Source: Anaerolineae bacterium
Lineage (GTDB): Bacteria > Chloroflexota > Anaerolineae > Epilineales > JAHCIE01
NCBI GenBank assembly: GCA_039810085.1
Contig: JBDHWG010000002.1
Location: forward strand, 96,281 to 160,280
Length of the DNA: 64,000 nucleotides
Reading direction: 5' to 3'
A program made the translations under genes and the position numbers. Of the stretch, positions 1 through 42,763 are shown in pieces (the first letter of the stretch is position 1; the number at the start of each line of letters is the position of its first letter). Under the pieces are notes generated by a model. The model saw only the letters and a program-made list of their open reading frames with translations. It was not told the DNA's origin and did not search any database.

Positions 1-1227
1 GAGTAACAGCAAGAGAGCCAGCAGCCAGCCCCACCAGGGCATATCGCAGAACGGGCCGAGCCGCGAGTTGGCAGCTGCGGCCGCGCCCGCTGTCTGGGGA
101 ATGACGACAGGCGCAATCGGGCGGAGCGTTGGGAACGGGGTGGATGTAGGAACCGGCGTTGCTGTCGGCGGCGCTTGAACCGCAACTGACATCTCTGGCG
201 GTAGGCGAAGTTCCTGGGGTGTATCACCACATCGCGTATATCTGATGAGGTCGCCACGATCAACGGAGTACGTTCCGGGAGCGCGGGGGCGCAGCCGGTA
301 GCTCAGGACGATGGATTGATTAAGCACGTCCTTGAGCTTCCACGTGATACGGTCCCCATTGACCGTCCCACTTGGGCTGACGGAGCCGGGGACAACCTCC
401 ATCGTCGTGGCATCAAACGTATGCTCGACGACCACATCCGAGGCCGCGTTGGCCTGCAGAACCGTCTCGGCGATTGTGGCGTAAATCCGGTCCAGGTCAC
501 CGGCGGAGGGGGCATAGTAGGAATCCGAGGGTTGCGACGCCATATCGCGCAGAAGCGACTGATCGGCGTCCGCGCCAAGACCGATAGTGATCAGGCGGAC
601 ACCATCATCACGCGCTTTCTTGGCCGCAGCCAACGGCGCTGCCCCGCTTTGCTTCCCGTCCGTGAGAAGAACGATTATCTGGTTCGCCTCCGGCCGCGCG
701 CGCGCCGTCTTCAGCTCGCGCTGCGCCATGACAATGCCCTGGTCCATTGCGGTGCCACCGTTGGCGTCAAATTGGTTGATTGCATCCGTGAGGCTTTGCA
801 GATCGCTGCTCAGGGGATGAGCGACGCTGGCCGCCGATTGGAACTCGACAAGCCCGACGTGATCGCGGCCAAGGTTGATTTTGCTCAAGAATGTCTTTGC
901 CGCGTCTTTGGTCCGGCTCATTTTCGTCGCGGACGTGCCGTCGCCAGCCGACTCACCCATGCTGCCAGAGTGGTCGATGACCAGGATGATGTCGGACGAC
1001 TTCTGAACGACTTTCCGCTCGCAGACGGCATTGTTGCCGGTCAGCTGGAGGGAGACAGTGAACTCATCCTTGCCCAGCGTGGCCGTGGGGGGTGTCACCT
1101 GGCGGCTAACCGCCAGCGCCTCGGGCGCCTGGCCCTGCGCCAGCGGGGTGTTGCCGGGGAGCAGGGTCAGGCCGACGAGCGCCAACACCAGCAGGACTAT
1201 CAAGGATCTCGGGTGGCTGATGCTCAT
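1..1227 (-). CDS. von Willebrand factor A (vWA) domain protein, membrane-anchored; 3' end (C-terminus) runs off the window edge
   Basis: Not in the ORF track because it is open to the window edge. My reverse-complement translation from the ATG at 1227 gives MSISHPRSLIVLLVLALVGLTLLPG... (signal/TM), then a vWA MIDAS motif VIDHSGSMG and later LLTDGKQSG. A TP-rich linker and a C-terminal hydrophobic stretch WWGWLLALLLLL lie at the window start. The plus-strand ORF 316..1557 is its antisense shadow. Confidence 0.7.
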   Translation of the reverse strand, partial: MSISHPRSLIVLLVLALVGLTLLPGNTPLAQGQAPEALAVSRQVTPPTATLGKDEFTVSLQLTGNNAVCERKVVQKSSDIILVIDHSGSMGESAGDGTSATKMSRTKDAAKTFLSKINLGRDHVGLVEFQSAASVAHPLSSDLQSLTDAINQFDANGGTAMDQGIVMAQRELKTARARPEANQIIVLLTDGKQSGAAPLAAAKKARDDGVRLITIGLGADADQSLLRDMASQPSDSYYAPSAGDLDRIYATIAETVLQANAASDVVVEHTFDATTMEVVPGSVSPSGTVNGDRITWKLKDVLNQSIVLSYRLRPRAPGTYSVDRGDLIRYTRCGDTPQELRLPPEMSVAVQAPPTATPVPTSTPFPTLRPIAPVVIPQTAGAAAAANSRLGPFCDMPWWGWLLALLLLL

Positions 1228-1329
1228 GACGGGCTCTCTAGGTGTTCTCAGCGCCGGGGCGAGCCATGCCGGCTGTGGATGTCAGCAACGGCTCGTCCCG
1301 GCAGCAGTCAGGCTCTTCTCAACGTGCGC

Positions 1330-4300
1330 TCATGCGACGGCGGGTTGACGCCTCGGCGCCCCGCACTCCGGGCAGAACCTGGCGTTCGGTGGCATCTCGT
1401 GGCCGTTCTCGCACACGGGCGTGGCTGGCCGCCTTGGCGCGCCGCACTCGGGGCAGAACTTGGCGTTCGGCGGCATCTCGTGGCCGTTCTCACACACAGC
1501 CACTGGCTCAGGGAGCTTGGGCGGCTCTGGCTTACGCTCGGGCTTCCCGCACTCTAGACAGAACTTGGCGTTCGGCGGCATCTCGTGGCCCTCTTCGCAG
1601 TAGCGAACGGGAGCCGGAGGCTCTAGCTTACGCTCAGGCTGCGGCTCCGGCGGGGTCTTGGTTTGAGATGAGACTCCTACGCTGGTCTTGCCGTCGGCCA
1701 CCAACGTTAGTCTCTCTCCACACTCCTCCACCTGCTTAGGCAGGGGGCCAGGCTCACCGCATTGGGTACAGAACTTCTTGACCGCTTGGTTCACGTGGCC
1801 TGATGGACACACCCACTGGCCATCGTCCAGCCACTTCGAGACTGGCGCATCCTCTTTGCCGTTATTCTCCACGCCGCTGACAGTTTCGGTCTCCTTACTT
1901 GTGTCCGCTTGGGCCGTGATCTCCAGCTCCGGTTCAGGCTGACGTTCGTCCGTTGGGATCTCCCCGGTCCATGCAGCCAAATCGAAGAAGCGGTCCTCAA
2001 GCGCCTTCAGTTCCTCGTACGCCGCGCCGCGCAAAGCCGTCCACAAATCCACGGCTTCCTGGATAGCGGCGCGCTGCTCAGGCTGCATGTCGCTGGGCGG
2101 CTGCGCGCCTTCACGCCACGCCCAGGAGTACCTCTGCAGCTCCTTCTGGGCGCGATCAATCAGGCCGTTGAGCCGGATGATGCGCGCCGCCTTGTCAGTG
2201 GCTTCCGCTTTCAACTGCGCATCGCGACGGTTCGCGGGTAGGAGGGACCAGCCCATATCTCCCTGCGCAGCGAGCATGTCGCGGTGTTCCTGGGACCGCC
2301 GCTCCAGGGTCGCCTCCACCTGCTTCCAGTCGATCTTCGTCGTCTTGTCAAATTCGACTTGCCGGCAGACGAGCTGAACAATGGCCTCCATCAGGCTGGG
2401 TTGATTGGAGGGTGGAGTGAGAGGGTATTCGACAGGGTAGGCGCGGCCGCGTAAGGTATAGACATCGCCATCCGCGCGGCGCTGCCCTTCAGGGTCAACC
2501 ATCAACCGCCAGTAGCTATATCCGCGCGGGTTGTCTTGCGGCGGCGTGTAGCGGTGCAGGAGGATGCCCCGCTCACCGCCAAGCTTCCAGTCATAGTTGG
2601 TCGAGCCGTAGGCGAGGCAGCGCATGGCAAGGTGGAAGCGGTCAATGTCCTCCATCGTGACAACTACCTTCTCGCTCAGCTGCCGCCGCCGCTGCCGCAT
2701 CGTCCTGTCGCCGGTGCTCAACCCACACTCGATCTGGAGCGCGTTGGACTCGGCGGGCAGGACGTGCAGCTCCCGCCAGCGGCTGCCCTGGGCGCTGACG
2801 GTGTGATAGCTCGGCTCGGCGTCGGCGTAGCCCTCGATTTGCGTCGGCCTGAGCAGGTCACCGAACATGACAAACGTGAGCTTGAAGCGGTCGCGCGACT
2901 CCTGGCCCGAGCTGGAAAGGTAATTCTGCTTCGCAGCCACCTGAATTTCACTTGCCGCGACCTCCTTGAACCTTACCGCCACTTCCCGCCGCACATCCTC
3001 CAGGAAAGCCTCGTCTTCGGGTTTTAGAGCGACTTTGTAGACGCGCATGATCGTCGTGCGCATGGGCGGCTCTTCCTGGGACGTTCGCTTCAGCAGATAG
3101 CCGCTATTCCTGAACACCCTGTCGCCCAAATCGCCGACTCGGTGTACATAATTGACGCGCAGATACTCGGTGACCGACATCTCTGTCCAGGCGTTATCGT
3201 AGACAGCGCGGCATTGGTTGAGGATGGTGTTCAGGTTGCGCAGCCCCAGGACTTGCTGGCCCGAGGCGCCGGCGCGGCGGTCCCAAGCTTTGCCGCCGAC
3301 CTTGAAGTCCACCCGCAGCCCCCCGCCTTCCTGCGGGACGACGCTCCACTCCATGGATTGCAAGACGTCGTCGAGCTTGCCGCGACTCAGCGCCTCGCGC
3401 TTCTGGCTGAGGTATTCGTCCTTCTCTTCATTGTCTTCGATGACCCAGCGCGCTGCGTTCTTGCTCTGGTTGCGGTCCACCTGGACCTCGCGCTGCCCAT
3501 CGAGGAGCAGGGCGTACGCTCCGCCATCGGCGGCGTAGGAAGTCGCCAGGGCGCGTTCCCACGTCGTCAGCTCCTTGAGCGCCCCCTCGACGGACTTCTG
3601 CAGGCGCTCGATCAGCTCGTAGACCACCTGGCGCGCGACGTCGGCCTTCTGGAACTGCATCAGCCGGTCGGCCGCCTCGCGGTACTTCTTGCGGTTGGAG
3701 TTCTGGAAGCCGGCGCCGCGCCGCATCTGCGTCGCCGCCTCTTTATAGGCGAGCTCAAGACCGTCATACTGCGGCTTGCGCTTTGTCTGGCTCTCCGCCC
3801 CTGCGCGGGCCAGGACGGCGGCGGCATCCTTGAGGATTTTGTCCACGCGCTGGAGGAAAGCCAGGGCGTAGCCGAGCTTTGCCTGCTTGCGCGTCTGCGG
3901 CGTCCCCTGGTTGGGGTCGCCGTTCAGCGTCAGGCGCAGCCACTTCAGCAGCACATCGTCGAAGCTGGTGACATGGTGGCTGCCCAGGATGACAAGGGCG
4001 CGGCGGAAGTCCCCGCCTGCGCGCAGCCAGACTTCGCGCGGCTCGCCGAGCATCTGGCGGTGCTTCACCCCGACCTCGGTCTCCATATTGCTGGCTTGCT
4101 GCTCGTTGGTCTTGCCTGGCTGGTTGTGGTCAACGTAGTACTTGCCGCTCTGCTTGTTGTTGACGCTGCCGTCTAGCTCTTCCTGGGCCTGCGCCACATA
4201 GTTTTGCCAGTTGGAATCTGACGGCGCGAGGCGCTGCTGCCACCCGCGCGCATCCTCGGCGAGGATCGCGGCGACGACTTGCTCGCGTTGGGCAGCGGTG

Positions 4301-5637
4301 CGGTCGGCCACGAGGCCCCACTCAGCCAGTTGGGCGACAAGGGCGGTCGTGTTCAACTTCAGCCAGCTCTCCGCGTCCCGACTCGGGTCGCGGGCCAATC
4401 CTTCGGGCTGCCCCGTCTCTAGTTGAAGCGGGAACAGCACGTCTTTCTCGTCCCGTTTCGGTTTAAGCAGCACATCTAACGCTTCGCGGGCCAGGCTGTG
4501 GCTCCACCCCTCGACGATGTGATAGATGGGCAGCTCGATGGTGTACGTCCCGACACTGCCGTAAGTGACCACGCCGTCGGGAATGTTGAAGGCGGGATAG
4601 AAGGACTTGTAGTTGACGGAGTGGCTGCAGAACGCGCTGCCCGACCGATCGTCCACGTACGAGACGATGACATCGGCGATCGAGGGCGCCAGCCCTTTCT
4701 CAAGCTCAAGAATGTTGAGGGGGTTGCGCTCGCGCTGGCCGTCGTAGAGATAGACGACGCTGTACGGGCTGCCCTGGAGCCGGGAGTTCAACGGCCCGGT
4801 TTTGGTGGGGTCGTAGACCATGGGGTAGCCGCCGATCTGGCGCGTCGTGACGCCGTCGAGGCGGGTCAGCTCGCGTAGGGCGGCGTAGGAGCGGGCCTCG
4901 AAGTCCTGCCGCACGGTCGGCTGGCTGATTTGCACCGCTGGGGTGCCGCGGAACGCCTCGGGCAGCACGAAGTGACCGATGATGACCGGCTCGGTGCGGA
5001 AGCCGGCGCTAGGGGCCAGGGCGTGGACCAGGTGGGCCACATCGGCGACCAGGGCGGCGCCCGTGCCCCCGGCGAGCGAGCCGGTGATGTGGACGTAGAC
5101 CTGGCTTGCCCCACTCTGGTAGATGGCGCGGAGCGACCCGAGGAGCAGGGTATTGAGCTGGGTCATGTTGGTGAACAGCGCCAGGCGGCCAAACTGGCGG
5201 AGGCGGCCCGCGCCGACATTGAGGTTCCACGTAGACGGCTCGACGTTCTTGACGTCGAGGTAGTAGCGGGCCTGGAACCAGCTGCTAATATGGCGGTTGG
5301 GCTGATTCTGGAGCAGGGAGTCGTTGCCCTCGGCCTTGATTTGCTCGGCCTTGACCGTCGCGCCAAGGGATCTGACGGTTCCGGTCAGCGGCACGTACTC
5401 GCCGCCCTCGATGCTGACCGGCCCGGTCTGGTGGTGCTGGTCGCGCTCGTTGCCCCAGCCGCCTACTTTGAACTGGTATTGCTGCTCTGTATCCAGGACA
5501 AGGAGGGCCATGCCGTCGGGCAGCTGGTTCCGATTAGTTTCCAGCAGCCCCTTCTTGACGAAGGTGACGACTTTCAGCCCCGTCCCCCCTAGACCGATGA
5601 CAAGCGACGGGATCGCTTTGAAGCTGTTATCCGCCAT
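1330..5637 (-). CDS. Giant FtsZ/tubulin-like GTPase (FtsZl-1-like) with long helical middle region and four C-terminal tandem zinc-ribbon modules
   Basis: The N-terminus MADNSFKAIPSLVIGLGGTGLKVV resembles the FtsZ/tubulin glycine-rich T1 loop. HITGSLAGGTGAALVADV resembles the GGGTG(S/T)G T4 signature. The protein is 1435 aa. The C-terminus carries four C-x2-GH-x(6-7)-FC-x2-CG repeats (WVCPSGH...FCTQCG, YCEEGHEMPPNAKFCLECG, VCENGHEMPPNAKFCPECG x2). It sits in an operon with vWA proteins, as reported for the FtsZl-1 family. Confidence 0.7.
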   Translation of the reverse strand: MADNSFKAIPSLVIGLGGTGLKVVTFVKKGLLETNRNQLPDGMALLVLDTEQQYQFKVGGWGNERDQHHQTGPVSIEGGEYVPLTGTVRSLGATVKAEQIKAEGNDSLLQNQPNRHISSWFQARYYLDVKNVEPSTWNLNVGAGRLRQFGRLALFTNMTQLNTLLLGSLRAIYQSGASQVYVHITGSLAGGTGAALVADVAHLVHALAPSAGFRTEPVIIGHFVLPEAFRGTPAVQISQPTVRQDFEARSYAALRELTRLDGVTTRQIGGYPMVYDPTKTGPLNSRLQGSPYSVVYLYDGQRERNPLNILELEKGLAPSIADVIVSYVDDRSGSAFCSHSVNYKSFYPAFNIPDGVVTYGSVGTYTIELPIYHIVEGWSHSLAREALDVLLKPKRDEKDVLFPLQLETGQPEGLARDPSRDAESWLKLNTTALVAQLAEWGLVADRTAAQREQVVAAILAEDARGWQQRLAPSDSNWQNYVAQAQEELDGSVNNKQSGKYYVDHNQPGKTNEQQASNMETEVGVKHRQMLGEPREVWLRAGGDFRRALVILGSHHVTSFDDVLLKWLRLTLNGDPNQGTPQTRKQAKLGYALAFLQRVDKILKDAAAVLARAGAESQTKRKPQYDGLELAYKEAATQMRRGAGFQNSNRKKYREAADRLMQFQKADVARQVVYELIERLQKSVEGALKELTTWERALATSYAADGGAYALLLDGQREVQVDRNQSKNAARWVIEDNEEKDEYLSQKREALSRGKLDDVLQSMEWSVVPQEGGGLRVDFKVGGKAWDRRAGASGQQVLGLRNLNTILNQCRAVYDNAWTEMSVTEYLRVNYVHRVGDLGDRVFRNSGYLLKRTSQEEPPMRTTIMRVYKVALKPEDEAFLEDVRREVAVRFKEVAASEIQVAAKQNYLSSSGQESRDRFKLTFVMFGDLLRPTQIEGYADAEPSYHTVSAQGSRWRELHVLPAESNALQIECGLSTGDRTMRQRRRQLSEKVVVTMEDIDRFHLAMRCLAYGSTNYDWKLGGERGILLHRYTPPQDNPRGYSYWRLMVDPEGQRRADGDVYTLRGRAYPVEYPLTPPSNQPSLMEAIVQLVCRQVEFDKTTKIDWKQVEATLERRSQEHRDMLAAQGDMGWSLLPANRRDAQLKAEATDKAARIIRLNGLIDRAQKELQRYSWAWREGAQPPSDMQPEQRAAIQEAVDLWTALRGAAYEELKALEDRFFDLAAWTGEIPTDERQPEPELEITAQADTSKETETVSGVENNGKEDAPVSKWLDDGQWVCPSGHVNQAVKKFCTQCGEPGPLPKQVEECGERLTLVADGKTSVGVSSQTKTPPEPQPERKLEPPAPVRYCEEGHEMPPNAKFCLECGKPERKPEPPKLPEPVAVCENGHEMPPNAKFCPECGAPRRPATPVCENGHEMPPNARFCPECGAPRRQPAVA
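1363..1600. repeat. Three tandem degenerate DNA repeats (~84-110 bp period) encoding the zinc-ribbon modules of the FtsZl-1-like protein
   Basis: The unit cagaac(t/c)tggcgttcgg(t/c)ggcatctcgtggcc recurs near 1367, 1451 and 1561. Confidence 0.6.
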
Positions 5638-5661
5638 CTCACTCCTCCAGGTGCTCTAGGA

Positions 5662-8286
5662 TTAGCGCGTGCCGCTATCCATGTCGAACGATTCCAGCAC
5701 TGCCCCGGATCCCTCCATCACGACTGCGCGCGGCCCCTTCTCGACGTAGTACCCCAGGCCCACCGACAGGGCGGGTGTGTTGGGGCCGAGAACAGTCGCC
5801 GGCCGGCCGCCATCTTTCAGCTCCACTTCCACCAGCGCACGTCCCGCTTTGGAGTCTTCGTCATTGGAGCACGTGACGATGATGCGCTTGACCGGGTTGG
5901 CATCGCTGCCGCGCCGGAGCAGGCCGCCGCTCACGTTGATGACGTGCCGGTTGCGCTGTGTGGGCAGCTCCTCTCTGAGAATGCGCTTACGGTAGCTCGT
6001 TTCCTCTGTCCCGTCGTTCGAGCCATACAGTGGGTCGAACATCGCCAGCTCGTAGACCTCGATCCAACCTGAGAGCGGGTGCGCGCGTTGCTTTATCTCT
6101 CGCCGTCCGACGCCGACCCCCGCCACACCGACCAGCCCGACAGCGGCCAGGACGCCAAAGAACCACGGGTTGATTCGGCCATCAGCCGAGGTCTTCCACT
6201 CCGAGCTGGCCCACTCGTAATCCTCGGCCAGCTGCGTGTTGGGTATCACTGCGATCTCATAGTGGCCGCGCCCGAGCGTGTTCGGCTCGAGCCGGTACAG
6301 ACCGGGCTTACCCGTGTTGCTCATCTTCGTCTCGGCGCTGCGGTCGTTGTTCTGAGCGTCGAGGATGCGCAGCTTGAACGGGTACATTGGGTCCACGGCG
6401 CCCACTTCGCCAGGCCCAATCGCCCTGCCGTCGTCCGTCTTGAGCTGAACTTCGAGGGGGAGACCCGTCGGGCGCAAGAATGGATCCGTCGCAATGAACT
6501 GTCCACCCTCGGGCGCGACGATCTCGGCGCGGACGAGCTTCGTCGGCGTCACGTCGAAGGACAGTTTGTCCTGGCCCAGGGTGACCGGGCCCTTCGGCGT
6601 ATCGATGCTGAAACGGTACGCGAGCTCGTGGCGGCCTGAAACCGCCGGCTTAAACGTGACGGAGTAGACGCCGTCCGGGCCTTCGGTGATCGGCACTGCC
6701 TGGGAACCGGTAGGGCTGGTGAGCGTGACTGTCCCAGTGATAGGCAGATCTGGCTTGACCGGCTGCTGGTTGGCCGTGACGCTGAACTTTACGGTGGAGG
6801 GGCGGTATTGCTTCGTGCTCCCCTTGACCGCGTCGGTGACAGCCAACTGCACTGGCGCGACCTGGAATGTAGCGATGGGTTGGTCGAAGACGACGAAGTC
6901 GGTATTGTCCGGGTTGCGCGTGGTCGCTTTGACGCGCAGTTCATTCGCGCCCGCTTCGAGGGGAATGACCTCACCGTTGAACTGGTAGCCCGGCTGGCTC
7001 TGGAGGGTGATAGGAAGGGCGGCCTTGGACGGCCCCACCAGGCTCGTTACAGTCTGCACCGTGTAGCGCGGGTCAGCATAATCCGGCAGGGGCGACTCCG
7101 AGGCGTCTCGAATAAGCATTTGAATCGGGGTGCGCTTGAACTGTACGAGGTTCGCGCCAGGGCCAGGCGCTGCGAGCTTCGGAGCCGCATTGAACCTGGA
7201 CACACGCACCTGACAGCGCGCTAGAGCGTCCGGCGACAGCTGGCTCTGGACTTGCCACAAGCCTGGCAGTGGGTTATTCACCGTGAGCGTCTCGATCGGA
7301 TCTTTGAGGCCGCTCACCCCCACCTTGACGTCTGTTCGGCCCGGCTCAAGCCGCCCTGTTTGGTCCCGCACGTCGAGGTGCTGGTCGGGGCTGGACTTGA
7401 TAAGCGTGAGCTCGACTTGCTGCACGAAAGGCGGAATGGAAATGGAGCCGCCTTTGTAGCACTCCTGGTTGAAGCCGGTGCGCCCGCCGCTTAGGTTGCT
7501 GGTCAACTGGCTGGTGATGCCTTGCAGGCGGCTCGTCATGTCCTGTTGGTCCACGGCGCGCACTGCGCGACTCGGGTCGCCTACAACGCGGTCCCAGTAC
7601 GGCTTCACATCGTTCCAGTACGTGTTGTCTTTGTCGATGCCGATGACAAAAATCTGGTGGGAGGAAGGTGGCATGTAGTTCTGCACATAGTCCGCCAGCT
7701 CAGTCATGTGATCTTGCCAGGAGAAGCCGGCCCGATTCAGCGCCGGCTGACCATCGGTTAACACGACGACGGCTCTCACGGGGCAGCCGTTGACTTGCGG
7801 CTGCGCCTGGTCGAATAGCGACGAGGCGGTCTGAAATGCGGCCAGAAAGTTCGTGTTACCAAGGGATTTCATAGGCGTGAACGACGGCGCCAGGTCACGG
7901 AGCTGCTGGTCGTGCTCGCTTTGGCTGGTAGACTTGAACTGGGTCCAGTCAAGCCCGACTTGTGGGCGGTCTCCGAAGTGAACCAGCGCCATCTGCATCG
8001 TGCTGGACGGGAAGATGATGTAGTGCAGAGTGCTGAGAAGCCGGGCCGTGTCGGCGGAGCCGAAGAAGCGTAACCCTTCCGGGTCACTTGGCGCTCGGCC
8101 GTTGATCACTTGAGACATCGAGCCGCTCTCGTCCACAATCAGGACGACTTGAAGCGCATTGCAGCCCGCCTGGGGCGACTGCTGCGCAGGGCGGGCGAAC
8201 GATCCGTCGCCTCGGGCCGGTAGGCTAGTGGCAAAAAGGGTAGTCAAGAGGACTACTAGGAGCAGGGCCACTCTCAATGATCGCAT
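5662..8286 (-). CDS. Secreted vWA domain protein with Ig-like/beta-rich region, C-terminal TM helix and ~130-aa cytoplasmic tail
   Basis: Signal peptide MRSLRVALLLVVLLTTLFATSLPARG. MIDAS motif LIVDESGSMS, later VLTDGQP. The TM segment WFFGVLAAVGLVGVAGVGVG lies near the C-terminus and is followed by a tail. The stop is 25 nt from the start of the FtsZl-1-like gene. Confidence 0.75.
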   Translation of the reverse strand: MRSLRVALLLVVLLTTLFATSLPARGDGSFARPAQQSPQAGCNALQVVLIVDESGSMSQVINGRAPSDPEGLRFFGSADTARLLSTLHYIIFPSSTMQMALVHFGDRPQVGLDWTQFKSTSQSEHDQQLRDLAPSFTPMKSLGNTNFLAAFQTASSLFDQAQPQVNGCPVRAVVVLTDGQPALNRAGFSWQDHMTELADYVQNYMPPSSHQIFVIGIDKDNTYWNDVKPYWDRVVGDPSRAVRAVDQQDMTSRLQGITSQLTSNLSGGRTGFNQECYKGGSISIPPFVQQVELTLIKSSPDQHLDVRDQTGRLEPGRTDVKVGVSGLKDPIETLTVNNPLPGLWQVQSQLSPDALARCQVRVSRFNAAPKLAAPGPGANLVQFKRTPIQMLIRDASESPLPDYADPRYTVQTVTSLVGPSKAALPITLQSQPGYQFNGEVIPLEAGANELRVKATTRNPDNTDFVVFDQPIATFQVAPVQLAVTDAVKGSTKQYRPSTVKFSVTANQQPVKPDLPITGTVTLTSPTGSQAVPITEGPDGVYSVTFKPAVSGRHELAYRFSIDTPKGPVTLGQDKLSFDVTPTKLVRAEIVAPEGGQFIATDPFLRPTGLPLEVQLKTDDGRAIGPGEVGAVDPMYPFKLRILDAQNNDRSAETKMSNTGKPGLYRLEPNTLGRGHYEIAVIPNTQLAEDYEWASSEWKTSADGRINPWFFGVLAAVGLVGVAGVGVGRREIKQRAHPLSGWIEVYELAMFDPLYGSNDGTEETSYRKRILREELPTQRNRHVINVSGGLLRRGSDANPVKRIIVTCSNDEDSKAGRALVEVELKDGGRPATVLGPNTPALSVGLGYYVEKGPRAVVMEGSGAVLESFDMDSGTR

Positions 8287-8298
8287 GGCGCATTCCCT

Positions 8299-9273
8299 CT
8301 AGTCAGGAGGCTCCCCTGGCGCTCGTAGATGAGCGATAATTGTGGGGGGATAGCGTTTCTCAGTCATTTCTTTGCGGACCGACGCCCGGTCATAACAAGC
8401 TGCGTGGAATGTGACGCTGCCGCCACCGTCTGGCTCTAGCGTCAACACGGCGTAGCTGGCCTTCCTCTCCCCACTCTTCTCACGCGAGAAGCCAACGCTG
8501 CCAGGCGAGAGGAGCGCCGGCTCGCTCGGCGACAGGGCTAACTCGTACGGTTCATCGAGGTATACCGCTGCTTCCCATTGATGAGCGTAAGCCCCCTCGC
8601 GGTAGAGAGAGCGGCGGTGTTCGTGTCCCACCAACGCCAGCCGAGGCAGCGCCAGGTCAGCGCCCTGCACCCGAAGCTCGGGCGCCACCGCGGGGCCGGT
8701 CGCCAGCCAGCTCAGCAACGCCAGGGTGTACCGGGCGTGTTGCGCCTCTTTGACATAGCCCCAGACATACGACCACAGAATATCATCGCTCAAGGGCTGG
8801 CGGAGCATATTCACATCCAGGTCTCGCACGGCGCCCCCGTGTATCAAGTAGATACCAGGTCGCGGCGCGCAGACAAGCGGCCACTTCTCGATCTCTGGTG
8901 CCACGCTCCTGGTATCGTTATCTCTGCCTAGCTCGCCAAATCGCATGAGCTCCCGCTGATGCAGGCGGATAATCTCCCAATCCGTTCGGTTGAACCCACC
9001 GTCTGCGCCGCGCTCGGTTTCGACGGTCTCTATCTTCCCGATAATGCCCCAATCGTGATTGCCGGCGACAACCCAGGACGGCCGATAACTGCGCATCAAA
9101 CGGTTCCAGGCTTGCCAGGGGCGTGGGCCGCGGCCGAAGATATCGCCGAGAAACCATAGCTCGGAAAAGGGCGTCGCTGCGTAACGGCTATGTGCGTCGT
9201 TCCAGGCCGCTCTCAACGCCAGTTCATCCGCGTGAACGTCCGCGAGCACAAGAACGCGTTCGATGCCGCTCAC
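8299..9273 (-). CDS. Calcineurin-like metallophosphoesterase (PPP-type phosphatase motifs) with uncharacterised C-terminal domain
   Basis: Motifs VLADVHAD, GDIFGRGP and GNHD (GDxHG / GDxxDRG / GNH[DE]) in the first ~75 aa. Its start overlaps the stop of the upstream 1480-aa gene (ATGA). Confidence 0.75.
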   Translation of the reverse strand: MSGIERVLVLADVHADELALRAAWNDAHSRYAATPFSELWFLGDIFGRGPRPWQAWNRLMRSYRPSWVVAGNHDWGIIGKIETVETERGADGGFNRTDWEIIRLHQRELMRFGELGRDNDTRSVAPEIEKWPLVCAPRPGIYLIHGGAVRDLDVNMLRQPLSDDILWSYVWGYVKEAQHARYTLALLSWLATGPAVAPELRVQGADLALPRLALVGHEHRRSLYREGAYAHQWEAAVYLDEPYELALSPSEPALLSPGSVGFSREKSGERKASYAVLTLEPDGGGSVTFHAACYDRASVRKEMTEKRYPPTIIAHLRAPGEPPD

Positions 9274-12200
9274 CCAGGCCTCGATGTCGTGTCACGACGA
9301 ATCAAGCCAGGCGGGGTCATCTCGAACTTCTCCTCGACTCGCCTGAGCGCGGCCTGGTATTCGACATACTTAGGCGCGATGGGGTAGAACTCATGGGCCA
9401 CCTGCGTAAACTTTCTCCACTCCTCAGTGTTCGCAACCGCCGATTTCCCCCTCAGGTTCATCAGCTTGTTGTAGGCGGTCTGGAATCGGAGCCACACAAC
9501 CGGGTACTGGTCTCTACGCTGTTGGATGATGCTGCCCGTCGTTATACAAGCGTCGAACTGCGCTTGATAGTGAGCCTGCATTGCCTGACGTTGCCGGTCC
9601 GCGCGTTGGACGACCTCGTACAGCCGGATCCGCTCTCGACTGGATGCGCTCGCGTCGGTCTGCTGGCGAAGGAACCGCTCAAACTCCTCCGATGACAGAG
9701 CCATCTTAGCCTTCAATAGGCACCATACCGTTTTTCCGTCTTGCTTCAGTTGGCTCTGCTTGACGCCCATGGCTGTTTCCTGGCACAAGGTGTACGCCTG
9801 CTGAAGCTCACCCAAATCGGACAGCTCGAGGATAACCAACTTTTGCTTTTCCCAATCCACAATGCCGTGAACGTCCTGATCTTCCTCGGTCGCGGTAACT
9901 CTGAATCGATGTAGCCAGCCCCTCAGCATCACGAGTTGCTGCACCTTGGCTTCGACAATCGGGATGATCACCGTCAGCGAGCGGTAGACCCGGTGGGTAT
10001 CCGGGTCATCGTACTCGATATCATCCTGCAAGCCGCAGGCGTCCTGGGATTCTTCCATTTGCATCCGCCGCATCTTTAGGAGGGCGGTCTCAATAGGGTA
10101 GATTGGAGGCTGCTGTTGCAGGTCTTGTCGTATTTGGTCTACCAGCCGCATCTCGGCCGGATCCTCCAACTGGGTTGGCAGGTCGTCCAACTGGGTCACA
10201 CGTTCGTGCAACAGCAACAGCCGAATCTCGTTCGCCAGTGTTTCTTGATGCTGCCGTCGCAGTTCCGCTTGCTCCAGGCTCTTGACCTGCGAGCGGTACG
10301 AGGGATGATCGCTGTCCCGGAAACCGGCTGGAATCTGGAGGAAAGTTGCGCTGACTTGTCCGCCCTTTAGGCGCAGGATGTAGCGCGCGTTTTCGAAACC
10401 CCGTGTGTCGCGCAGGCCCAGTTGGATTTGAGCCTCTACATTGTCCAGGGCATCCTGGAACTGGTTCAACTCTGCCAGCCAATCGTCGGCTTTCTCCTCC
10501 TCCTGAGGGCTAATTGCCAGGGCCGGACCTCGCCCCCCCAGTGTGGTCATTTGGAGTTGCAGGCGCTCCAAAGCGCCGCGCGTCACGTCGCGCTCGTTGA
10601 CCAGCTGTTTTGCCATTACCAGCTGGCGGTCCAGCACATTAGCGTCTGGTGTCGTCTTGTCATGCCTTCTGAATTGTTGCGCCGAGTAGTCGTAGGTGAC
10701 TTGCTGGATTCTCTGGCGCAACTCGGACCCGGCGCGCACAACAAGATCCTGAAGCTCCTGCACTCGAAGACCCTGGGCCGCCTCGTCATCCTCTTGGAAC
10801 AGGATAACAATGCCCAGTTGGGCGTCAATCCGATCGAAGATACTTCGCGCTCGTCGGGCCTGTCCCTCCAGTCGTGCCTGCGCCGCATAACGCCCCTGAT
10901 CCCACAATGTCCTCAGGACACGACGCGGCTCGACGGTATGCTTCGGTGACTGTTCCAACTGCCGAGTAGCCCCATCATAGGCGAGGCGCGCCTGCCGGCA
11001 TGCCTCTGCCGTCAGGGTAGCGCCAGTTCGTAGATGTTTGTAAATGTTCGTCCCAGCGCGGCCGATAATGCTCCAAGGCTGCCATTCCTCCTGCCGCTGG
11101 TTAACCAGGGTTTGATCGCCGATATCCGACGCCAGGCCGCGCGCTTTAGCCAGCGATTTGTCGGCGCGGTCGAGGTAGTCAACCCCCTTCTCGACCGTGT
11201 CCTCGCCCCGCAACGCGCGCCTGGCAAGCTCGAAGCACGCGTCACCGTGGAGCTTCCAAACCTCCCAATCCTCCTGGAACAGCGGGTCGTTACAGAGGCT
11301 GGCGTAGATGACCTCAGCCTCTTCCGGCTGGGCGAGCCGGGCGCGGGCGATGCGACTTTGCTTCTGAGCCTCCCTGGCCTTGCGTTCGCAGAACTCGCGT
11401 ACCTCCTCGCCAACGGAAGCGAGTTGCCTGACGCGTTCCCAGGCGCTGCTCACGCGCTCCCAGTCCTTGCTGGTAATGCTGGTGGCTGGCAGCCCCCGCT
11501 GGGCGTCCCACGCTTTCACGACCTCACGCGGCTCGGCGAGCAGCTCCAGCACCCCGTCGCCGTCACGCATCTCTAGCCGCTCATAGCGGCGCTGCAAACC
11601 TTCCAACTCGTCACGCGTGAGGTGTTCATAGAATGTGCCTCGATGCGCCCGGATTAGCTCGCGGATTTGCTCAGCAAGCATCTCAGCCAGTCTGCGCTGT
11701 GCTTCCTGCTGCGCCCCTATCAGGTCCGGGCGGAGGGAAGACGGTTGGTCGATGGCATTACGGAGCAGCCGCAATGCCTCGTCCAATTCCCTAAGACTCC
11801 CGCCCTCTACCAGACGTTGGGCGCGTTCCAGGGCTCCTCGGGCCGCTGGCTCGTTGCGCCGGATTCGATCAAGTTTTTGTTGGAGTTGGGCAGCCCGCGC
11901 CGCAGCGGCGGCTCCCATATCCCCCATGGCTGCCTGAAGCCCAGTTTCGACGACATACAGGTCGGGGACGAGCCAGGCGTCGCCCGTGTTCCCTGCTCGA
12001 TTGTCCAGTTTAGCCATCTCATCCCGAGCGCGCGCATATCCCTGCCATGCCGTGAGTTTGTCCACCGCGCCGCTCAATGCTTGACGCTGAGTTGACGACA
12101 AATCGCTTGTCTGAGATAGACGCCGTGTGTAGTCCAGGGTGGCCTTTTCGACCGTCTCGAGTGGCGTGCCGGGTTGACAGATGCGGCGTAGCTCATCCTG

Positions 12201-13712
12201 AATTTTGCTTTCATCCAACCGCACTTGCAGCTCGGCCAGACGGTCTTGCCGCTTGTGCCAGTGCTGCCAATACTCAGGGTAATCGCGCTGGAGCGACTGG
12301 AGCGTCTCCATCTCGGCCTGGTAACTCATGCCGCCACCGCTGCCGTCCAGCGGCCGCACGCGACTATAGAGCCTATTGAGCGCCTCATAGCGCTCGGCCA
12401 GTTCTGTTTCTACTTCGGGGACCATGTCAATCAAGCTCTTCGCCTGGACCATGCGCCGGGAGATCCCAGACCAGTTATCGTTCTTAAGAAGATTATCAAT
12501 CTCGTCGAGTATTTCAGCAGCAGCGGCTTGGGCGCGCGGAACAATGTTCTGGCGGAGCTCGTCCAGGGCGGGAAGCCAGCGGTAGGTATTTTGCGCGTCT
12601 TGCCACAACTTGTAGGCACGCACCGGGTCGGATTGCAGCCGGGCCTGCCCGGCCAGTCCCTGGGCTTTGAGATAAGCGTCTAGTTCCGGTTGAATCGCCT
12701 CTTCCATTGCCTCAATCTTTTGCTTGTACTCAGCCGGAACTTCGATGCCTATGCGGCTGTCATTGATGCCGCCAATCTCTTTCCATTTTGCCAGCTCCGC
12801 CTGGGCGTCGGAGGGGCGATGCGCATCCAGCCGCTCGCGGGCTGCCTGCACATACTCCTCAATCTTGGGCCGCCAGAACAGCTCAAGCATCCGCCGCCGA
12901 GCGACCGGCAAGGCCCTGGAAACTTCCATCGCTCGCGCCGCCTGACCTTTTGTGGCATCCGGATAGTAGGTGACCAACTCGTTGGGGTTGCGCTCCACCC
13001 GCGCCGTGAAATCAAGAAGCAGCTCGACGAATTCATTGCCGGTGTCACGGGTTTTTGTCACTTCGTGCCGTGTCCGCAGATCATCGTAGATTTGCTTCGC
13101 TCGGTCGCGCAGTTGCATGAGAGCGTCGCGCTGCTCCTGCTCCCACACCTGTCCCGCACCAAGAGCGCCAGTTACCTTCGTGAAGGCCTCTTCCGCGAAG
13201 GGAATAACCTGCTCGCCCTTCTCGCCTTCTTCGTCGCGCACCCGGTCCCACAGTGCGTTGACCTCTTTTTGAAGCGCCGCGAAGCGCTGGGCGCTCAAGG
13301 CACGGCTTTGGAGGGTCTGGAGACGCTCGTCGAGGCGGAGAGTATCGGATGGGGCAGTCCGCCCGGCTCGAAGCGCGCGGATATTGTCTAGAAGCTCGCC
13401 AACCTGGCGCAGCTCATCTTGGGACACATCATCGGCCAAGGTTGGCCGCCGCTCGAGCTGGCTCAGACGGTCGTTAGCCTCGTTCTCCAGCCGATCGATG
13501 AGCGGCTCAACCAGCGCCTCGTAGCGCCGCCGCAGGTCGCGGATGCGGGGCTGGTCTTGCAGCGTAAGGTTCGCTGCATCATCATTGCATTGCTTCAACA
13601 CGACCGGAATAGCGGCGAGATCGGCGAGGGACTTCCGAATCTCGCCGATGGACGATTGGGTGAACGCATCGAGTTGCTGACCGATGCGGTTCAATTTCTC
13701 ACTCACGGCCAT
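9270..13712 (-). CDS. 1480-aa all-alpha / coiled-coil protein (R/E/L/Q/A-rich), no recognisable catalytic motif; first gene of the FtsZl-1/vWA operon
   Basis: Long uninterrupted ORF. Its composition is typical of extended helical or coiled-coil scaffolds. It is translationally coupled to the phosphoesterase gene. Confidence 0.6.
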   Translation of the reverse strand: MAVSEKLNRIGQQLDAFTQSSIGEIRKSLADLAAIPVVLKQCNDDAANLTLQDQPRIRDLRRRYEALVEPLIDRLENEANDRLSQLERRPTLADDVSQDELRQVGELLDNIRALRAGRTAPSDTLRLDERLQTLQSRALSAQRFAALQKEVNALWDRVRDEEGEKGEQVIPFAEEAFTKVTGALGAGQVWEQEQRDALMQLRDRAKQIYDDLRTRHEVTKTRDTGNEFVELLLDFTARVERNPNELVTYYPDATKGQAARAMEVSRALPVARRRMLELFWRPKIEEYVQAARERLDAHRPSDAQAELAKWKEIGGINDSRIGIEVPAEYKQKIEAMEEAIQPELDAYLKAQGLAGQARLQSDPVRAYKLWQDAQNTYRWLPALDELRQNIVPRAQAAAAEILDEIDNLLKNDNWSGISRRMVQAKSLIDMVPEVETELAERYEALNRLYSRVRPLDGSGGGMSYQAEMETLQSLQRDYPEYWQHWHKRQDRLAELQVRLDESKIQDELRRICQPGTPLETVEKATLDYTRRLSQTSDLSSTQRQALSGAVDKLTAWQGYARARDEMAKLDNRAGNTGDAWLVPDLYVVETGLQAAMGDMGAAAAARAAQLQQKLDRIRRNEPAARGALERAQRLVEGGSLRELDEALRLLRNAIDQPSSLRPDLIGAQQEAQRRLAEMLAEQIRELIRAHRGTFYEHLTRDELEGLQRRYERLEMRDGDGVLELLAEPREVVKAWDAQRGLPATSITSKDWERVSSAWERVRQLASVGEEVREFCERKAREAQKQSRIARARLAQPEEAEVIYASLCNDPLFQEDWEVWKLHGDACFELARRALRGEDTVEKGVDYLDRADKSLAKARGLASDIGDQTLVNQRQEEWQPWSIIGRAGTNIYKHLRTGATLTAEACRQARLAYDGATRQLEQSPKHTVEPRRVLRTLWDQGRYAAQARLEGQARRARSIFDRIDAQLGIVILFQEDDEAAQGLRVQELQDLVVRAGSELRQRIQQVTYDYSAQQFRRHDKTTPDANVLDRQLVMAKQLVNERDVTRGALERLQLQMTTLGGRGPALAISPQEEEKADDWLAELNQFQDALDNVEAQIQLGLRDTRGFENARYILRLKGGQVSATFLQIPAGFRDSDHPSYRSQVKSLEQAELRRQHQETLANEIRLLLLHERVTQLDDLPTQLEDPAEMRLVDQIRQDLQQQPPIYPIETALLKMRRMQMEESQDACGLQDDIEYDDPDTHRVYRSLTVIIPIVEAKVQQLVMLRGWLHRFRVTATEEDQDVHGIVDWEKQKLVILELSDLGELQQAYTLCQETAMGVKQSQLKQDGKTVWCLLKAKMALSSEEFERFLRQQTDASASSRERIRLYEVVQRADRQRQAMQAHYQAQFDACITTGSIIQQRRDQYPVVWLRFQTAYNKLMNLRGKSAVANTEEWRKFTQVAHEFYPIAPKYVEYQAALRRVEEKFEMTPPGLIRRDTTSRPG

Positions 13713-13876: not shown

Positions 13877-14806
13877 ATGACGACTAGGTGCTGCTGGCAG
13901 TCCCACCACCACGTTCATGAGTTGCTGGACGGGTTGTGCGCAACGCAGGTTGAGCTGTGGTTGGAGCAGAGCAAAGAGCGTGGCGAAGTTGCGTCCCATG
14001 AGAACCTTACCGAGACGATTGCGCATTTGCTGCGTCAGAATCTGGCCAGCGGTCGGGTCGATCGTGTCTATCGCGCCTGTCAACCCGAGCCAAGCGTGAA
14101 TATGCCAGGTCTACTGACCAACGATGACGCGCGCGAGATACCTGACATCGAGAGTGAGACCCTCCGGCGAGCTGAGTCTCTGCACTTCTTGACGCAGTAC
14201 GTAGACCGACTCATCCGTTACTACGACCTTGAGCACAGACTGGTGACAAAACTCGGCGCGTCCGATCCACTCGCTTGGGAGCAACTGGGCAAAATGCTGA
14301 GGAATCGCGCCTATATCCTCCTCACCCGCCAGGGGGTGGACGTCAACCGCGCCATAGCTGAGGCCCCGGAATTTGCCCAGCAAGCGTGCGAAGTGATATG
14401 CAGCCACGCTTATTACTATGATGTTCCGTTCGCCGCCTGGGCCAATCTCATTCTGAAGAACCTCATCCTTCAACGCTATTGTCGCTCACACGACATCATG
14501 AGCCGGGTTGACCTGGAGCCGTTGGACAATGACGCGGATCAGGGCATCCATACCTGGGCGCTCCTTCACGAATGCTTAGCCAACCCGCACGAAGAGGACA
14601 TAGACAACATCGAGGAGTACGACTGGGTCGTAGACGCTATCTCTCGGATCAGGAGCAAATCGCAAAGATACGTTCTAACAGCTTCATTCTACGAGGAAGT
14701 GAGCGACGACGAGATTGCGCGACAGCTTGGGAAGAGTCGAAACGCGGTCTACATCTTGCGTCATAGGGCGCTGCAACATCTTCGCCGAACCCTTGATGGG
14801 GTTTAA
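13877..14806 (+). CDS. Sigma-70 family (ECF/group-4-like) RNA polymerase sigma factor with N-terminal extension
   Basis: Region-4 HTH ...RYVLTASFYEEVSDDEIARQLGKSRNAVYILRHRALQHLR. Region-2-like FAAWANLILKNLILQRY. Confidence 0.7.
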   Translation: MTTRCCWQSHHHVHELLDGLCATQVELWLEQSKERGEVASHENLTETIAHLLRQNLASGRVDRVYRACQPEPSVNMPGLLTNDDAREIPDIESETLRRAESLHFLTQYVDRLIRYYDLEHRLVTKLGASDPLAWEQLGKMLRNRAYILLTRQGVDVNRAIAEAPEFAQQACEVICSHAYYYDVPFAAWANLILKNLILQRYCRSHDIMSRVDLEPLDNDADQGIHTWALLHECLANPHEEDIDNIEEYDWVVDAISRIRSKSQRYVLTASFYEEVSDDEIARQLGKSRNAVYILRHRALQHLRRTLDGV

Positions 14807-14853
14807 AGAAAGCTAGATGGGCGTAAACTGAAAGAATTCTTAGTCATCTTGCA

Positions 14854-15258
14854 TTGACCTATAAAAGGATGGAGCGAATGAGTTTCAGGGTCAATGCATG
14901 GTACGATGCCGAGATTCTTCGCCCTCTGTTCGAGGAGCGTCAGGCAACGCTTCGGTCACTTGGCGTTCATCCCTTGTCTTGCGAGGAGTGCCGGGACGTC
15001 CTCGATATCTACGTGTCTGACGAGCTAGACGGCGAAGACGTTGAGAAAACCTACCCCGCGTTGTCTCACCACCTCAGGCGCTGCCCGCTGTGTCAGGACG
15101 TCTACGCTGACGTGAAGTGGTGCCTGGCGCAAGGGCTTGCCGATCACCCGAGATGGACACCACCTGCGTCGCCCGCCTCCGACTCGTCGCCTTCACATGA
15201 TTCGATAGAGAGTCATGTAGGTGCGCCGGAGTCTTCTCGTCACTCCCCTAATAAGTAG
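14854..15258 (+). CDS. Anti-sigma factor, putative zinc-finger (zf-HC2) type
   Basis: Immediately downstream of the sigma factor. HPLSCEECRDVLDIYVSDELD...HHLRRCPLCQD matches the H-x3-C-x2-C zf-HC2 pattern of ChrR/RsrA-like anti-sigma factors. Confidence 0.6.
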   Translation: MTYKRMERMSFRVNAWYDAEILRPLFEERQATLRSLGVHPLSCEECRDVLDIYVSDELDGEDVEKTYPALSHHLRRCPLCQDVYADVKWCLAQGLADHPRWTPPASPASDSSPSHDSIESHVGAPESSRHSPNK

Positions 15259-15854
15259 ACCCTGAGATAGACCTCCCCAACTTTGGGACGCGAGGAATCC
15301 GTAATATAATGGAGTCTCTCAATCGGTGCGTCTTTGAACAACGTCGGGACCGTTTCCTGGAGCAGTTTCGCCACCTCTTCCGACAACTGGTTGCCCTTGA
15401 TATAGTTTGGGTGATTGCCGAAGGAGATGACAAAGCCGGCGCGCCGGTTGCTCAGGCTCTGGTACTGGCTCCAGATTTGCTGTCGCAATTGCAGGCGTTC
15501 GGCATCCTTCGCCGGGCCATCTGGCCCGAGCAAGACATCGGCGTTGGTCACAAGCGTTGCCTCGCGCGGGGCAAGTTCGACGCCGGGGCGCGTCGGAACG
15601 GGTGTCGGCGGAATCACCTCGGTTGGTGTGGAGGTTGGTGTCGGTGTCAAGGTCGGCGTCAGCGTAGACGTTGGCCGGGGCGTGGGGGTGCTCGTCGGTG
15701 TCAGCGTTGGCGTTGGCGTTGGCGTTGGAACGGCAGGCGCACCCGGGCTAGCGACAAGGAAAAGCATAGCCAGGCCGAGGAGTAGGTCGGCAAAAAGCCA
15801 ACCGCTGAGCAGCGTCATGTCTCGAACTGTACCGTGAGAGCCAGATTGAGCCAT
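15240..15854 (-). CDS. Membrane/secreted protein with TP-rich linker and conserved C-terminal domain (hypothetical)
   Basis: The ORF 15240..16013 overlaps the upstream gene by 140 bp. Internal starts MAQSG (15854, preceded by a GGGGGG SD-like stretch) or MTLLSGWLFADLLLGLAMLFLVA (15818) give an N-terminal TM/signal segment followed by a (TPTP)n linker. The start is uncertain. Confidence 0.45.
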   Translation of the reverse strand: MAQSGSHGTVRDMTLLSGWLFADLLLGLAMLFLVASPGAPAVPTPTPTPTLTPTSTPTPRPTSTLTPTLTPTPTSTPTEVIPPTPVPTRPGVELAPREATLVTNADVLLGPDGPAKDAERLQLRQQIWSQYQSLSNRRAGFVISFGNHPNYIKGNQLSEEVAKLLQETVPTLFKDAPIERLHYITDSSRPKVGEVYLRVYLLGE

Positions 15855-15873
15855 CCCCCCGTCCCTTCTTGTG

Positions 15874-17343: not shown

Positions 17344-17363
17344 AGATACGCCTCCGGGTGGGT

Positions 17364-19160: not shown

Positions 19161-19168
19161 AACAATGC

Positions 19169-20377: not shown

Positions 20378-20548
20378 AATGGCCCGCTCCCTAGCGGTAC
20401 TCCTTCCTGTGCATATCTCCTACGCCGGTCGGGCGAAAGCCTTAACAAGAAATATGCGAAAGTCGGGTTGAATCTTTCGCTTGCCCTCGTGAGCCGACGG
20501 CCAAACAAGGTCTGACACGCAAGCTCTTCGTTCCTTGACCCCGCTATG

Positions 20549-42757: not shown

Positions 42758-42763
42758 AAGGAG

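Follow-up and report, generated by a model that had tools for sequence, protein, structure and literature searches.

A Chloroflexota version of the FtsZl1 (Tubulin_2)–vWA system, read as a possible envelope-spanning signalling and assembly machine

Gene content and layout of the locus

We analysed a 64,000-nucleotide (nt) stretch of DNA from an Anaerolineae bacterium (NCBI GenBank assembly GCA_039810085.1, contig JBDHWG010000002.1, positions 96,281 to 160,280 of the forward strand), which is referred to here as the window. At its left end lies a cluster of five genes, gA to gE, which encodes a tubulin-like GTPase of the FtsZl1 (Tubulin_2) family, two vWA proteins, a metallophosphoesterase and a long protein of helix-favouring composition. 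The original prediction, made from the letters of the sequence, described five co-directional genes that are tightly spaced or overlapping, and all five open reading frames (ORFs) are indeed present on the minus strand:

13712..9270, minus strand: gA, 1480 amino acids (aa), intact ORF
9273..8299, minus strand: gB, 324 aa, intact ORF
8286..5662, minus strand: gC, 874 aa, intact ORF
5637..1330, minus strand: gD, 1435 aa, intact ORF
1227..<1, minus strand: gE, at least 409 aa, cut by the left window edge

The distances between consecutive genes, in order from gA to gE, are -4, 12, 24 and 102 nt, the first of these being a 4-nt overlap of gA and gB. Because the ORFs run head to tail on the minus strand with tight spacing, and because a simple scan found no convincing internal terminator, gA–gE have the layout of a single operon. 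An Rfam scan of the window gave no match. Judged from related loci, the conserved unit comprises six genes, A to F, and reaches past the left window edge, such that the window would hold the first four and a half of them. Based on these comparisons, we read A–F as a Chloroflexota-specific version of the FtsZl1 (Tubulin_2)–vWA system.

A soluble tubulin-like GTPase

The gD protein matches the Pfam family Tubulin_2 (PF13809) with an E value of 2.8e-40 and 139.1 bits (cut-off 27), over profile positions 1–355 of 356. Two parts of the gene are of particular relevance:

4477..5604, minus strand: gD GTPase domain, aa 12–387 (Pfam envelope)
1363..1809, minus strand: gD zinc-ribbon tail, four ribbons, aa 1277–1425

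The FtsZ/tubulin T1 and T4 signatures that had been noticed near the N-terminus of gD fall within this Tubulin_2 match (T1, GLGGTG, aa 15–20; T4, AGGTGAA, aa 189–195), together with a T3-like GAG at aa 142–144, and they are conserved in homologs: in alignments of 18–58 homologs, G15, G17, G18, G20, S187 and G190–G193 are invariant or nearly so. In T4, an alanine replaces the first glycine of the GGGTG[ST]G signature. Besides its GTPase core, the protein has a helical insertion of considerable length, C-terminal regions of alpha/beta type, a linker of low complexity and the four zinc ribbons, and ~1050 aa extend beyond the Pfam Tubulin_2 domain.

A four-fold zinc-ribbon tail had also been proposed, and it is found both in the Pfam matches (Zn_Ribbon_1, 1e-15; DZR, 1.1e-9) and in the positions of the motif C-x2-GH-x9-FC-x2-C, which occurs in four copies. 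The last two of these ribbons are encoded by a tandem repeat at 1349–1497 (81 nt, 1.8 copies, 91% matching), and this 81-nt duplication therefore indicates a recent expansion of the ribbon array. The C-terminal tail varies among gD homologs, which carry zinc ribbons, SHOCT, CHAT or no such module.

A search of the PDB with the tubulin-like domain gave no significant match with either the single sequence or a 53-sequence profile. With hhalign, gD residues 181–262 were placed onto residues 97–158 of Escherichia coli FtsZ (S4-T4-H4-S5-T5-H5); the probability was low because the template was a single E. coli FtsZ sequence. The same program gave no signal between gD and the C-terminal half of E. 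coli FtsZ, the Pfam domains FtsZ_C and Tubulin_C were absent from gD, and a T7 loop was not recognised. A structural model of 1200 gD residues is compact, multi-domain and of high confidence, and it aligns 302 of the 342 residues of CetZ, versus 206 with a model of 430 aa; sequence identity to the solved FtsZ, CetZ, TubZ, PhuZ, BtubAB and tubulin structures is 9–16%. Taken together, the family profile match and the structural model support gD as an FtsZl1/Tubulin_2 member with the tubulin/FtsZ fold, including a Rossmann-like GTPase topology, as had been proposed for its N-terminal domain. The model further suggests that both domains of the tubulin/FtsZ core are retained in FtsZl1, the second being completed by segments past aa 430, and that in gD a helical insertion of roughly 300 aa interrupts this two-domain fold.

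vWA proteins and a second tubulin-like domain

The gC protein carries, in order, a signal peptide, an extracytoplasmic vWA domain, an immunoglobulin (Ig)/filamin-like region, a transmembrane (TM) helix at aa 709–727 and a 147-aa cytoplasmic tail that forms a small conserved beta-rich domain. It is matched by Pfam VWA_2 (2e-9, above the cut-off), VWA (1.2e-5) and Filamin (3.5e-5, under the Pfam cut-off), and its metal-ion-dependent adhesion site (MIDAS) reads DESGS at aa 52–56 (D52-x-S-x-S56), followed by GNTNF and VLTDG. The layout of signal peptide, TM helix and tail is seen in 16 gC orthologs.

The second vWA protein, gE, is represented in the window by its N-terminal part:

1..1227, minus strand: gE N-terminal fragment, 409 aa, with signal peptide, vWA domain and the start of the first TM helix at the window edge

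This fragment, which has a signal-peptide-like N-terminus, matches Pfam VWA at 4.6e-27, above the cut-off, and its MIDAS reads DHSGS at aa 85–89 (D85-x-S-x-S89), followed by GGTAMD and LLTDG. As a query for homologs, the fragment retrieved generic vWA proteins only. It is 51–54% identical to the N-termini of the gE proteins of L164 (1918 aa) and L165 (1897 aa), the two loci most closely related to the block in the window, and its last visible residues align with the first TM helix of these proteins. In related loci, the protein at the gE position is 1500–2300 aa long and its orthologs contain, in order, a signal peptide, a vWA domain, two close TM helices, a PD40/Tricorn beta-propeller, a third TM helix, a Tubulin_2 domain and ~600 further residues. 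By orthology, the full gE of this genome should be ~1900 aa long with a propeller, three TM helices and a cytoplasmic Tubulin_2 domain, and would thus join an extracellular vWA/propeller head, across the membrane, to a tubulin-like domain in the cytoplasm. The head itself varies modularly, as the gE of L007 (13943–20860) carries an additional CAP domain at its N-terminus, along with two vWA domains and one of the CarboxypepD_reg type.

The original prediction placed both vWA domains behind signal peptides and had both proteins anchored by C-terminal TM helices with short cytoplasmic tails. Signal peptides and the DxSxS motif are found in both, and the anchor in gC, where the tail is a domain of 147 aa; the helix at the edge of gE is instead the first of three in orthologs of ~1900 aa, which removes the C-terminal anchor and short tail for this protein. 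The broader proposal that a vWA domain outside the cell is coupled to a tubulin-like domain inside it gains from the same comparison, since gE orthologs fuse the two across the membrane.

When GTPase domains of the gD and gE types are aligned, T1 is seen to be retained in both. The T4 core GGTG is kept in every gD-type domain, whereas eight of nine gE-type domains read GGM-SG, GGLGSG, GGFSSA or similar; the gE of L162 likewise reads GGMSG. Because GGTG is kept in the one type and replaced in most members of the other, the comparison suggests a gD–gE pair in which one subunit is active and the other is anchored in the membrane and nucleotide-impaired.

Components linked to phosphorylation

The gA protein has no TM helix and a helix-favouring composition (L, R, A, E and Q make up 51% of its residues). 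It had no match in Pfam, NCBIfam or PADLOC, and a word-indexed homolog search returned nothing. An exhaustive HMMER search of 1.84 billion proteins (E≤1e-3) gathered a narrow family of 67 representatives, 1400–1800 aa in size, and in 11 loci transitive homology connects gA with the gene that occupies its position. It is the fastest-evolving protein of the block, with 32–34% identity where gD has 53–54%. An N-terminal Pkinase domain (1e-24 to 1e-39) is found on the gA-family proteins P0089, P0104, P0108 and P0115 and on the gA of L005 (1158–6461), a gA-family protein in L165 (1–6332) is fused to an N-terminal Ser/Thr kinase domain, and a stand-alone kinase lies directly upstream of gA in L002 and L165 (in the latter a NERD-kinase). 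Judging by these relatives, gA is likely a kinase-associated cytoplasmic scaffold.

The gB protein matches Metallophos (PF00149; 1.1e-11, 46 bits, cut-off 21.5), with 3rqz_A as its best PDB match (1.8e-18), and its metal-ligand motifs D12-x-H14, G43-D44, G71-N72-H73, H145 and H217-x-H219 are invariant in 12 orthologs. It is predicted to be an active calcineurin-like metallophosphoesterase. The narrower PPP-type label that it had been given is not established: gB reads DVHAD, GDIFGRGP and GNHD versus the PPP signatures GDxHG, GDxVDRG and GNHE, and scores 20 bits against NCBIfam ApaH, far below the cut-off of 176. A metagenome scan with a gB profile yielded mostly generic phosphoesterases of ~240 aa, with orthologous proteins only in L082, L083 and L088. 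The link of gB to kinases leads us to infer a role as protein phosphatase. A sixth gene, gF, lies downstream of gE in relatives and has a divergent kinase-like N-terminal domain in which the VAVK lysine, DRK..D and DWN motifs are kept. Because kinase-fused or kinase-adjacent gA, active-looking gB and kinase-like gF occur together, the gene content points to phosphorylation as a regulatory layer of the block.

Conservation of the block

Homologs of gD could be detected in 77 cases, and the named ones are nearly all from Chloroflexota (Chloroploca, Chloroflexales, Anaerolineae, Ardenticatenaceae, Longilinea). The order A-B-C-D-E(-F) is found in L001–L005, L007, L018, L023, L042, L044, L047, L088, L164 and L165, and the C-D-E core also in L006, L008, L019, L034 and L162, the last of which has a short gA-like gene with C, D and E but lacks gB. 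The same block order occurs across Chloroflexales, Anaerolineae, Caldilineales and Ardenticatenaceae-type metagenome-assembled genomes (MAGs). Chance juxtaposition of the five genes is ruled out by an order kept in more than 15 loci. Because the tubulin/FtsZ fold is supported and the gene order is conserved, the original prediction holds on both counts.

Neighbours were counted by tblastn at those of 32 gD-type loci that have enough flanking sequence, and the counts are lower bounds:

gC-like gene immediately upstream of gD: at least 20 of 25 loci
gB near gD: at least 10 of 23 loci
gE-type vWA gene downstream of gD: at least 11 of 24 loci
second Tubulin_2 gene near gD: at least 9 of 24 loci

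Judged from gene order, the core is C-D-E, with A, B and F as frequent accessories. Relatives do not share synteny in the regions flanking the block, and a transposase adjoins it in L164. In L004 (Candidatus Aquidulcis), genes for a KAP-NTPase/FGE-sulfatase fusion, SIR2_2 and nSTAND1-WD40 lie between gD and gE (14081–20997). A gD-type protein in L163 (P0028, 159–7180) is 43% identical over 96% of the query and ends in a C-terminal CHAT protease.

Some loci show further peculiarities. Downstream of P0028 in L163 lie genes for another CHAT protein, a resolvase and an SNF2 helicase, and in L008 a third Tubulin_2 gene is located upstream of the block (55–3051). Two gD-type loci, L017 and L010, come from MAGs assigned to Acidithiobacillus ferrivorans and to a cyanobacterium, respectively, which could reflect either horizontal transfer or contamination during binning.

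Comparison with known systems

Operons that combine FtsZl1 genes with genes for vWA proteins, protein kinases and diverged GTPases were described in 2010 by Makarova and Koonin (PMC2875224). These authors favoured membrane remodelling as the function of FtsZl1; T6-H7 and the C-terminal domain were not identifiable by sequence, non-polymerisation was left open, and characterised members of the FtsZ/tubulin superfamily were all said to form filaments (PMC2875224). The block analysed here shares with these operons the Tubulin_2 match and long C-terminal extension of gD, adjoining vWA genes with signal peptide or TM helices and intact MIDAS, and kinases near relatives. The proposed match to an FtsZl-1 neighbourhood is thus supported, specifically to the vWA-linked type. 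Unlike the operons of 2010, it has a six-gene Chloroflexota layout, two Tubulin_2 paralogs of which one is placed behind an extracellular vWA domain and propeller by three TM helices, a narrow family of helical gA proteins of 1400–1800 aa, and a calcineurin-like phosphatase (the word 'phosphatase' is absent from the main text of PMC2875224).

In a later study, tubulin genes were reported to form the centre of 52% of GAP1-N2 neighbourhoods, and Firmicutes versions of this tubulin theme, viewed as conflict systems, to contain two tubulins plus a pair of vWA proteins of which one is extracellular (Kaur et al. 2020, PMC7159879); the theme was reported only in Firmicutes and Actinobacteria. Both there and here, two tubulin-domain proteins have long helical C-terminal parts (the second one here by orthology), and of two vWA proteins one is membrane-embedded with its vWA domain outside. 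An association with multicellular bacteria is also common to both, zinc ribbons are common in that theme, and a DO-GTPase/GAP1-N2 pair adjoins the block in our window. In contrast to the GAP1-N2 theme, this pair appears to stand outside the conserved block, YtkA and FNIII were not seen, and a vWA–tubulin fusion, a metallophosphatase and kinases are present.

With FtsZ, CetZ, TubZ, PhuZ, BtubAB and tubulin, gD shares the T1 and T4 signatures and the T3-like GAG, while differing from the solved members by large inserts, including the helical one of ~300 aa, and by the lack of a TubR/centromere, division or phage context around it. A TubZ/PhuZ partition system or a divisional FtsZ is accordingly rejected, as the family is a different one and TubR, centromere and division genes are missing nearby. 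The TerY-P triad is of the vWA–kinase–PP2C phosphatase type. As in such triads (the third theme of PMC7159879), a vWA protein, one or more Ser/Thr kinases and a phosphatase share a neighbourhood, a likeness which, by analogy, suggests phospho-regulated assembly of the block; unlike in the triads, gB is not a PP2C, the vWA domains are extracytoplasmic and the window itself contains no kinase gene. We reject a TerY-P-type triad because there is no PP2C. A MoxR/AAA+ domain is absent from gA–gE and from orthologous neighbours, and with no MoxR and both vWA domains outside the cell behind signal peptides, neither a MoxR–vWA ternary system nor the suggested likeness to vWA-centred thresholding modules can be upheld.

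Integrin–talin complexes combine an extracellular MIDAS-bearing vWA-type domain, a beta-propeller and Ig-like legs with a TM helix and a cytoplasmic tail. The analogy with an integrin–talin–cytoskeleton link extends to a giant helical cytoplasmic protein (gA) and a nucleotide-dependent polymer former, with homology claimed for the vWA fold only. In contrast to integrin complexes, the polymer candidate belongs to the tubulin and not the actin family, and receptor and cytoskeletal domain are a single polypeptide.

The locus had been put forward as the best candidate in the window for a new system. This kind of system is already known from comparative genomics, since FtsZl1 with vWA and kinase genes was described in 2010 and two tubulins with two vWA proteins in 2020. 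What appears to be new is the six-gene Chloroflexota architecture, the vWA–TM–Tubulin_2 fusion and the pair of active and degenerate paralogs, as well as the metallophosphatase component, the kinase-linked gA family and the model-based complete tubulin fold.

Genomic surroundings

On the gA side, the block is followed in the window by these genes:

13877..14806, plus strand: sigma-70-like gene, region 4 only (Sigma70_r4_2, 7e-8), divergent from gA
15240..16013, minus strand: 257-aa ORF, in the DO-GTPase operon
15874..17343, minus strand: membrane/helical protein, 489 aa, in the DO-GTPase operon
17364..19160, minus strand: GAP1-N2+GAP1-M protein (1.1e-13, 7.5e-8)
19169..20377, minus strand: DO-GTPase with two N-terminal zinc ribbons (PF19993, 2.4e-8; PF19975, 9e-6)
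20549..22483, minus strand: CHAT (caspase-like) peptidase, beyond the DO-GTPase operon
22493..26464, minus strand: 1323-aa protein with RHS repeat, beyond the CHAT peptidase
26508..27239, minus strand: LigT/2'-5' RNA ligase-like gene, beyond the RHS-like gene

Homologs of the sigma-70-like gene are found close to the same block in L032 and in L034, in the latter case divergently oriented and immediately before gC, so that it may be a dedicated regulator of the block. The visible flanks of L164 and L165 lack it, and its membership is uncertain. By its domains, the 15240–20377 segment is a four-gene conflict system of the type described by Kaur et al. 2020, adjoining the tubulin operon, and the region with this operon and the CHAT, RHS-like and LigT-like genes looks like a conflict island.

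Elsewhere in the window, the guanine–cytosine content peaks at 0.69 at 42000–46000, versus about 0.60–0.63 in the remainder. This peak coincides with the gene for a secreted subtilase of 1166 aa with PA and PKD domains (42764..46264), and at 46381..48300 the opposite strand encodes a beta-propeller protein with LVIVD repeats.

A proposed mechanism

Based on our findings, we tentatively favour a reading, held with a confidence slightly short of even, in which the products of A–F form an envelope-spanning signalling and assembly machine. The proposal builds on the domain identities, topology, fold, gene-order conservation and fusions described above. The MIDAS-bearing vWA domains of gC, on its Ig-like stalk, and of gE, with its propeller, would bind a surface ligand, probably in a metal-dependent manner, and the signal would pass the membrane within gE itself and via the tail of gC. 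The degenerate tubulin-like domain of gE would then anchor or seed GTP-dependent assembly of gD, giving rise to an oligomer or a short filament. The threshold of assembly would be set and reset by kinases on the gA scaffold together with the kinase-like gF, opposed by the phosphatase gB, while the output would come from the variable C-terminal module of gD, which consists of zinc ribbons here and of SHOCT or a CHAT protease in relatives. The role of such a machine would most likely be cell-surface surveillance in a multicellular filamentous bacterium, as a conflict or stress response, rather than cell division. A conflict-type role is hinted at by the fusion of a gD-type protein to CHAT, the defence-type insertions in L004 and the non-syntenic flanks, and the conflict flavour comes also from neighbours of the block in the window, namely a CHAT peptidase, an RHS-like gene and the DO-GTPase/GAP1-N2 operon, as well as from the view of two-tubulin, two-vWA modules as conflict systems (PMC7159879).

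Several observations weigh against this interpretation. No match at E≤0.01 was found in PADLOC-DB 2.0 for any of gA–gE, and the searchable literature yielded no biochemical or genetic work on any FtsZl1 protein, in line with the earlier remark that no member had been functionally characterised. With gE running off the window, the second tubulin-like domain and gF are predicted for this genome solely from their orthologs. Some components are accessory, as gB was found at 10 of 23 and a second Tubulin_2 gene at 9 of 24 loci (lower bounds), and gB could act on nucleotides rather than on phosphoproteins, as predicted for calcineurin-like effectors by Kaur et al. 2020 (PMC7159879). Finally, broad syntenic conservation over several Chloroflexota orders is equally compatible with a housekeeping function in the envelope.

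Alternative explanations

Such a housekeeping function is the alternative that survives best, although we consider it unlikely on balance. It would be an integrin-like machine for adhesion or membrane remodelling, essentially as envisaged by Makarova and Koonin in 2010, in which the vWA, propeller and Ig-like parts bind the cell wall, sheath, neighbours or substrate and are joined mechanically to a tubulin-like cytoskeleton and to gA as a giant helical linker, serving filament cohesion, gliding or membrane shaping. The conserved block order in several Chloroflexota groups and the silence of PADLOC are what one would expect of it, as is the arrangement with vWA, propeller and Ig-like domains outside and a short tail and a giant helical protein inside; the complete tubulin fold of the model is compatible with a real polymer, and membrane remodelling was favoured by the authors of the family (PMC2875224). 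It accords less well with C-terminal modules of gD that vary and include a CHAT protease, with defence-type genes inside the operon of L004, with non-syntenic flanks and the transposase adjacent in L164, with the very fast evolution of gA and with a distribution that is patchy even in Chloroflexota.

It is also conceivable, at a clearly lower probability, that the tubulin-like domains do not polymerise at all and that the fold was co-opted for GTP-regulated switches or dimerisation modules (a gD–gE heterodimer) in a pathway of the receptor-kinase type. The failure to identify T6-H7 and the C-terminal domain by sequence in 2010 (PMC2875224), the missing sequence-level match to the C-terminal half of FtsZ and the degenerate T4 of the gE paralog would all fit such a switch, and in the model the core is embedded in a compact protein of 1200 aa in which longitudinal interfaces might be occluded. 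Against it stand the canonical T1, T3 and T4 of gD and the formation of filaments by all characterised superfamily members (PMC2875224).

More improbable still, the block could be the effector and sensor arm of the DO-GTPase/GAP1-N2 system at 15240..20377, the double GTPase of which would control tubulin assembly; the whole would then represent the tubulin theme of GAP1-N2 conflict systems in a Chloroflexota form. The DO-GTPase and GAP1-N2/GAP1-M genes are located 3.6–6.7 kb upstream on the same strand, a suggestive adjacency given that GAP1-N2 neighbourhoods are often tubulin-centred (PMC7159879), and diverged GTPases were noted in FtsZl1 operons (PMC2875224). However, a divergent gene on the opposite strand separates the two clusters, a transposase/antitoxin pair or a NERD-kinase is found upstream of gA in the closest relatives instead, and the flanks of 80 related loci, of which mostly ~2 kb upstream is visible, contain no such system except for a weak DO-GTPase-like match in L051. 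Since the DO-GTPase/GAP1-N2 genes were not found in the mostly ~2 kb visible upstream of gA in related loci, we provisionally treat A–F as an autonomous unit.

Implications for the FtsZl1 family

The envelope-spanning machine that we favour has a more specific form, which we advance as an unlikely yet consequential possibility: a receptor with a tubulin-family cytoplasmic domain, in which a ligand on the gE head nucleates a gD polymer, gated by kinase and phosphatase, with FtsZl1 keeping a split two-domain fold. If true, a receptor-seeded polymer would represent either a link akin to integrins and focal adhesions or a signalling polymer of the inflammasome type, and a complete two-domain fold would answer the question raised in 2010 of whether FtsZl1 can polymerise canonically.

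Within the tubulin/FtsZ superfamily, FtsZl1 forms the most divergent branch, and its Chloroflexota version provides a clear architecture for experiments, with a soluble canonical gD, an anchored degenerate gE and a kinase/phosphatase pair, for which the high-confidence model of 1200 gD residues offers concrete constructs and mutants. Should gD and gE assemble on cue, they would provide the first case of a tubulin-family polymer wired directly to a surface receptor, and they would link the bacterial cytoskeleton to the conflict systems of multicellular prokaryotes.

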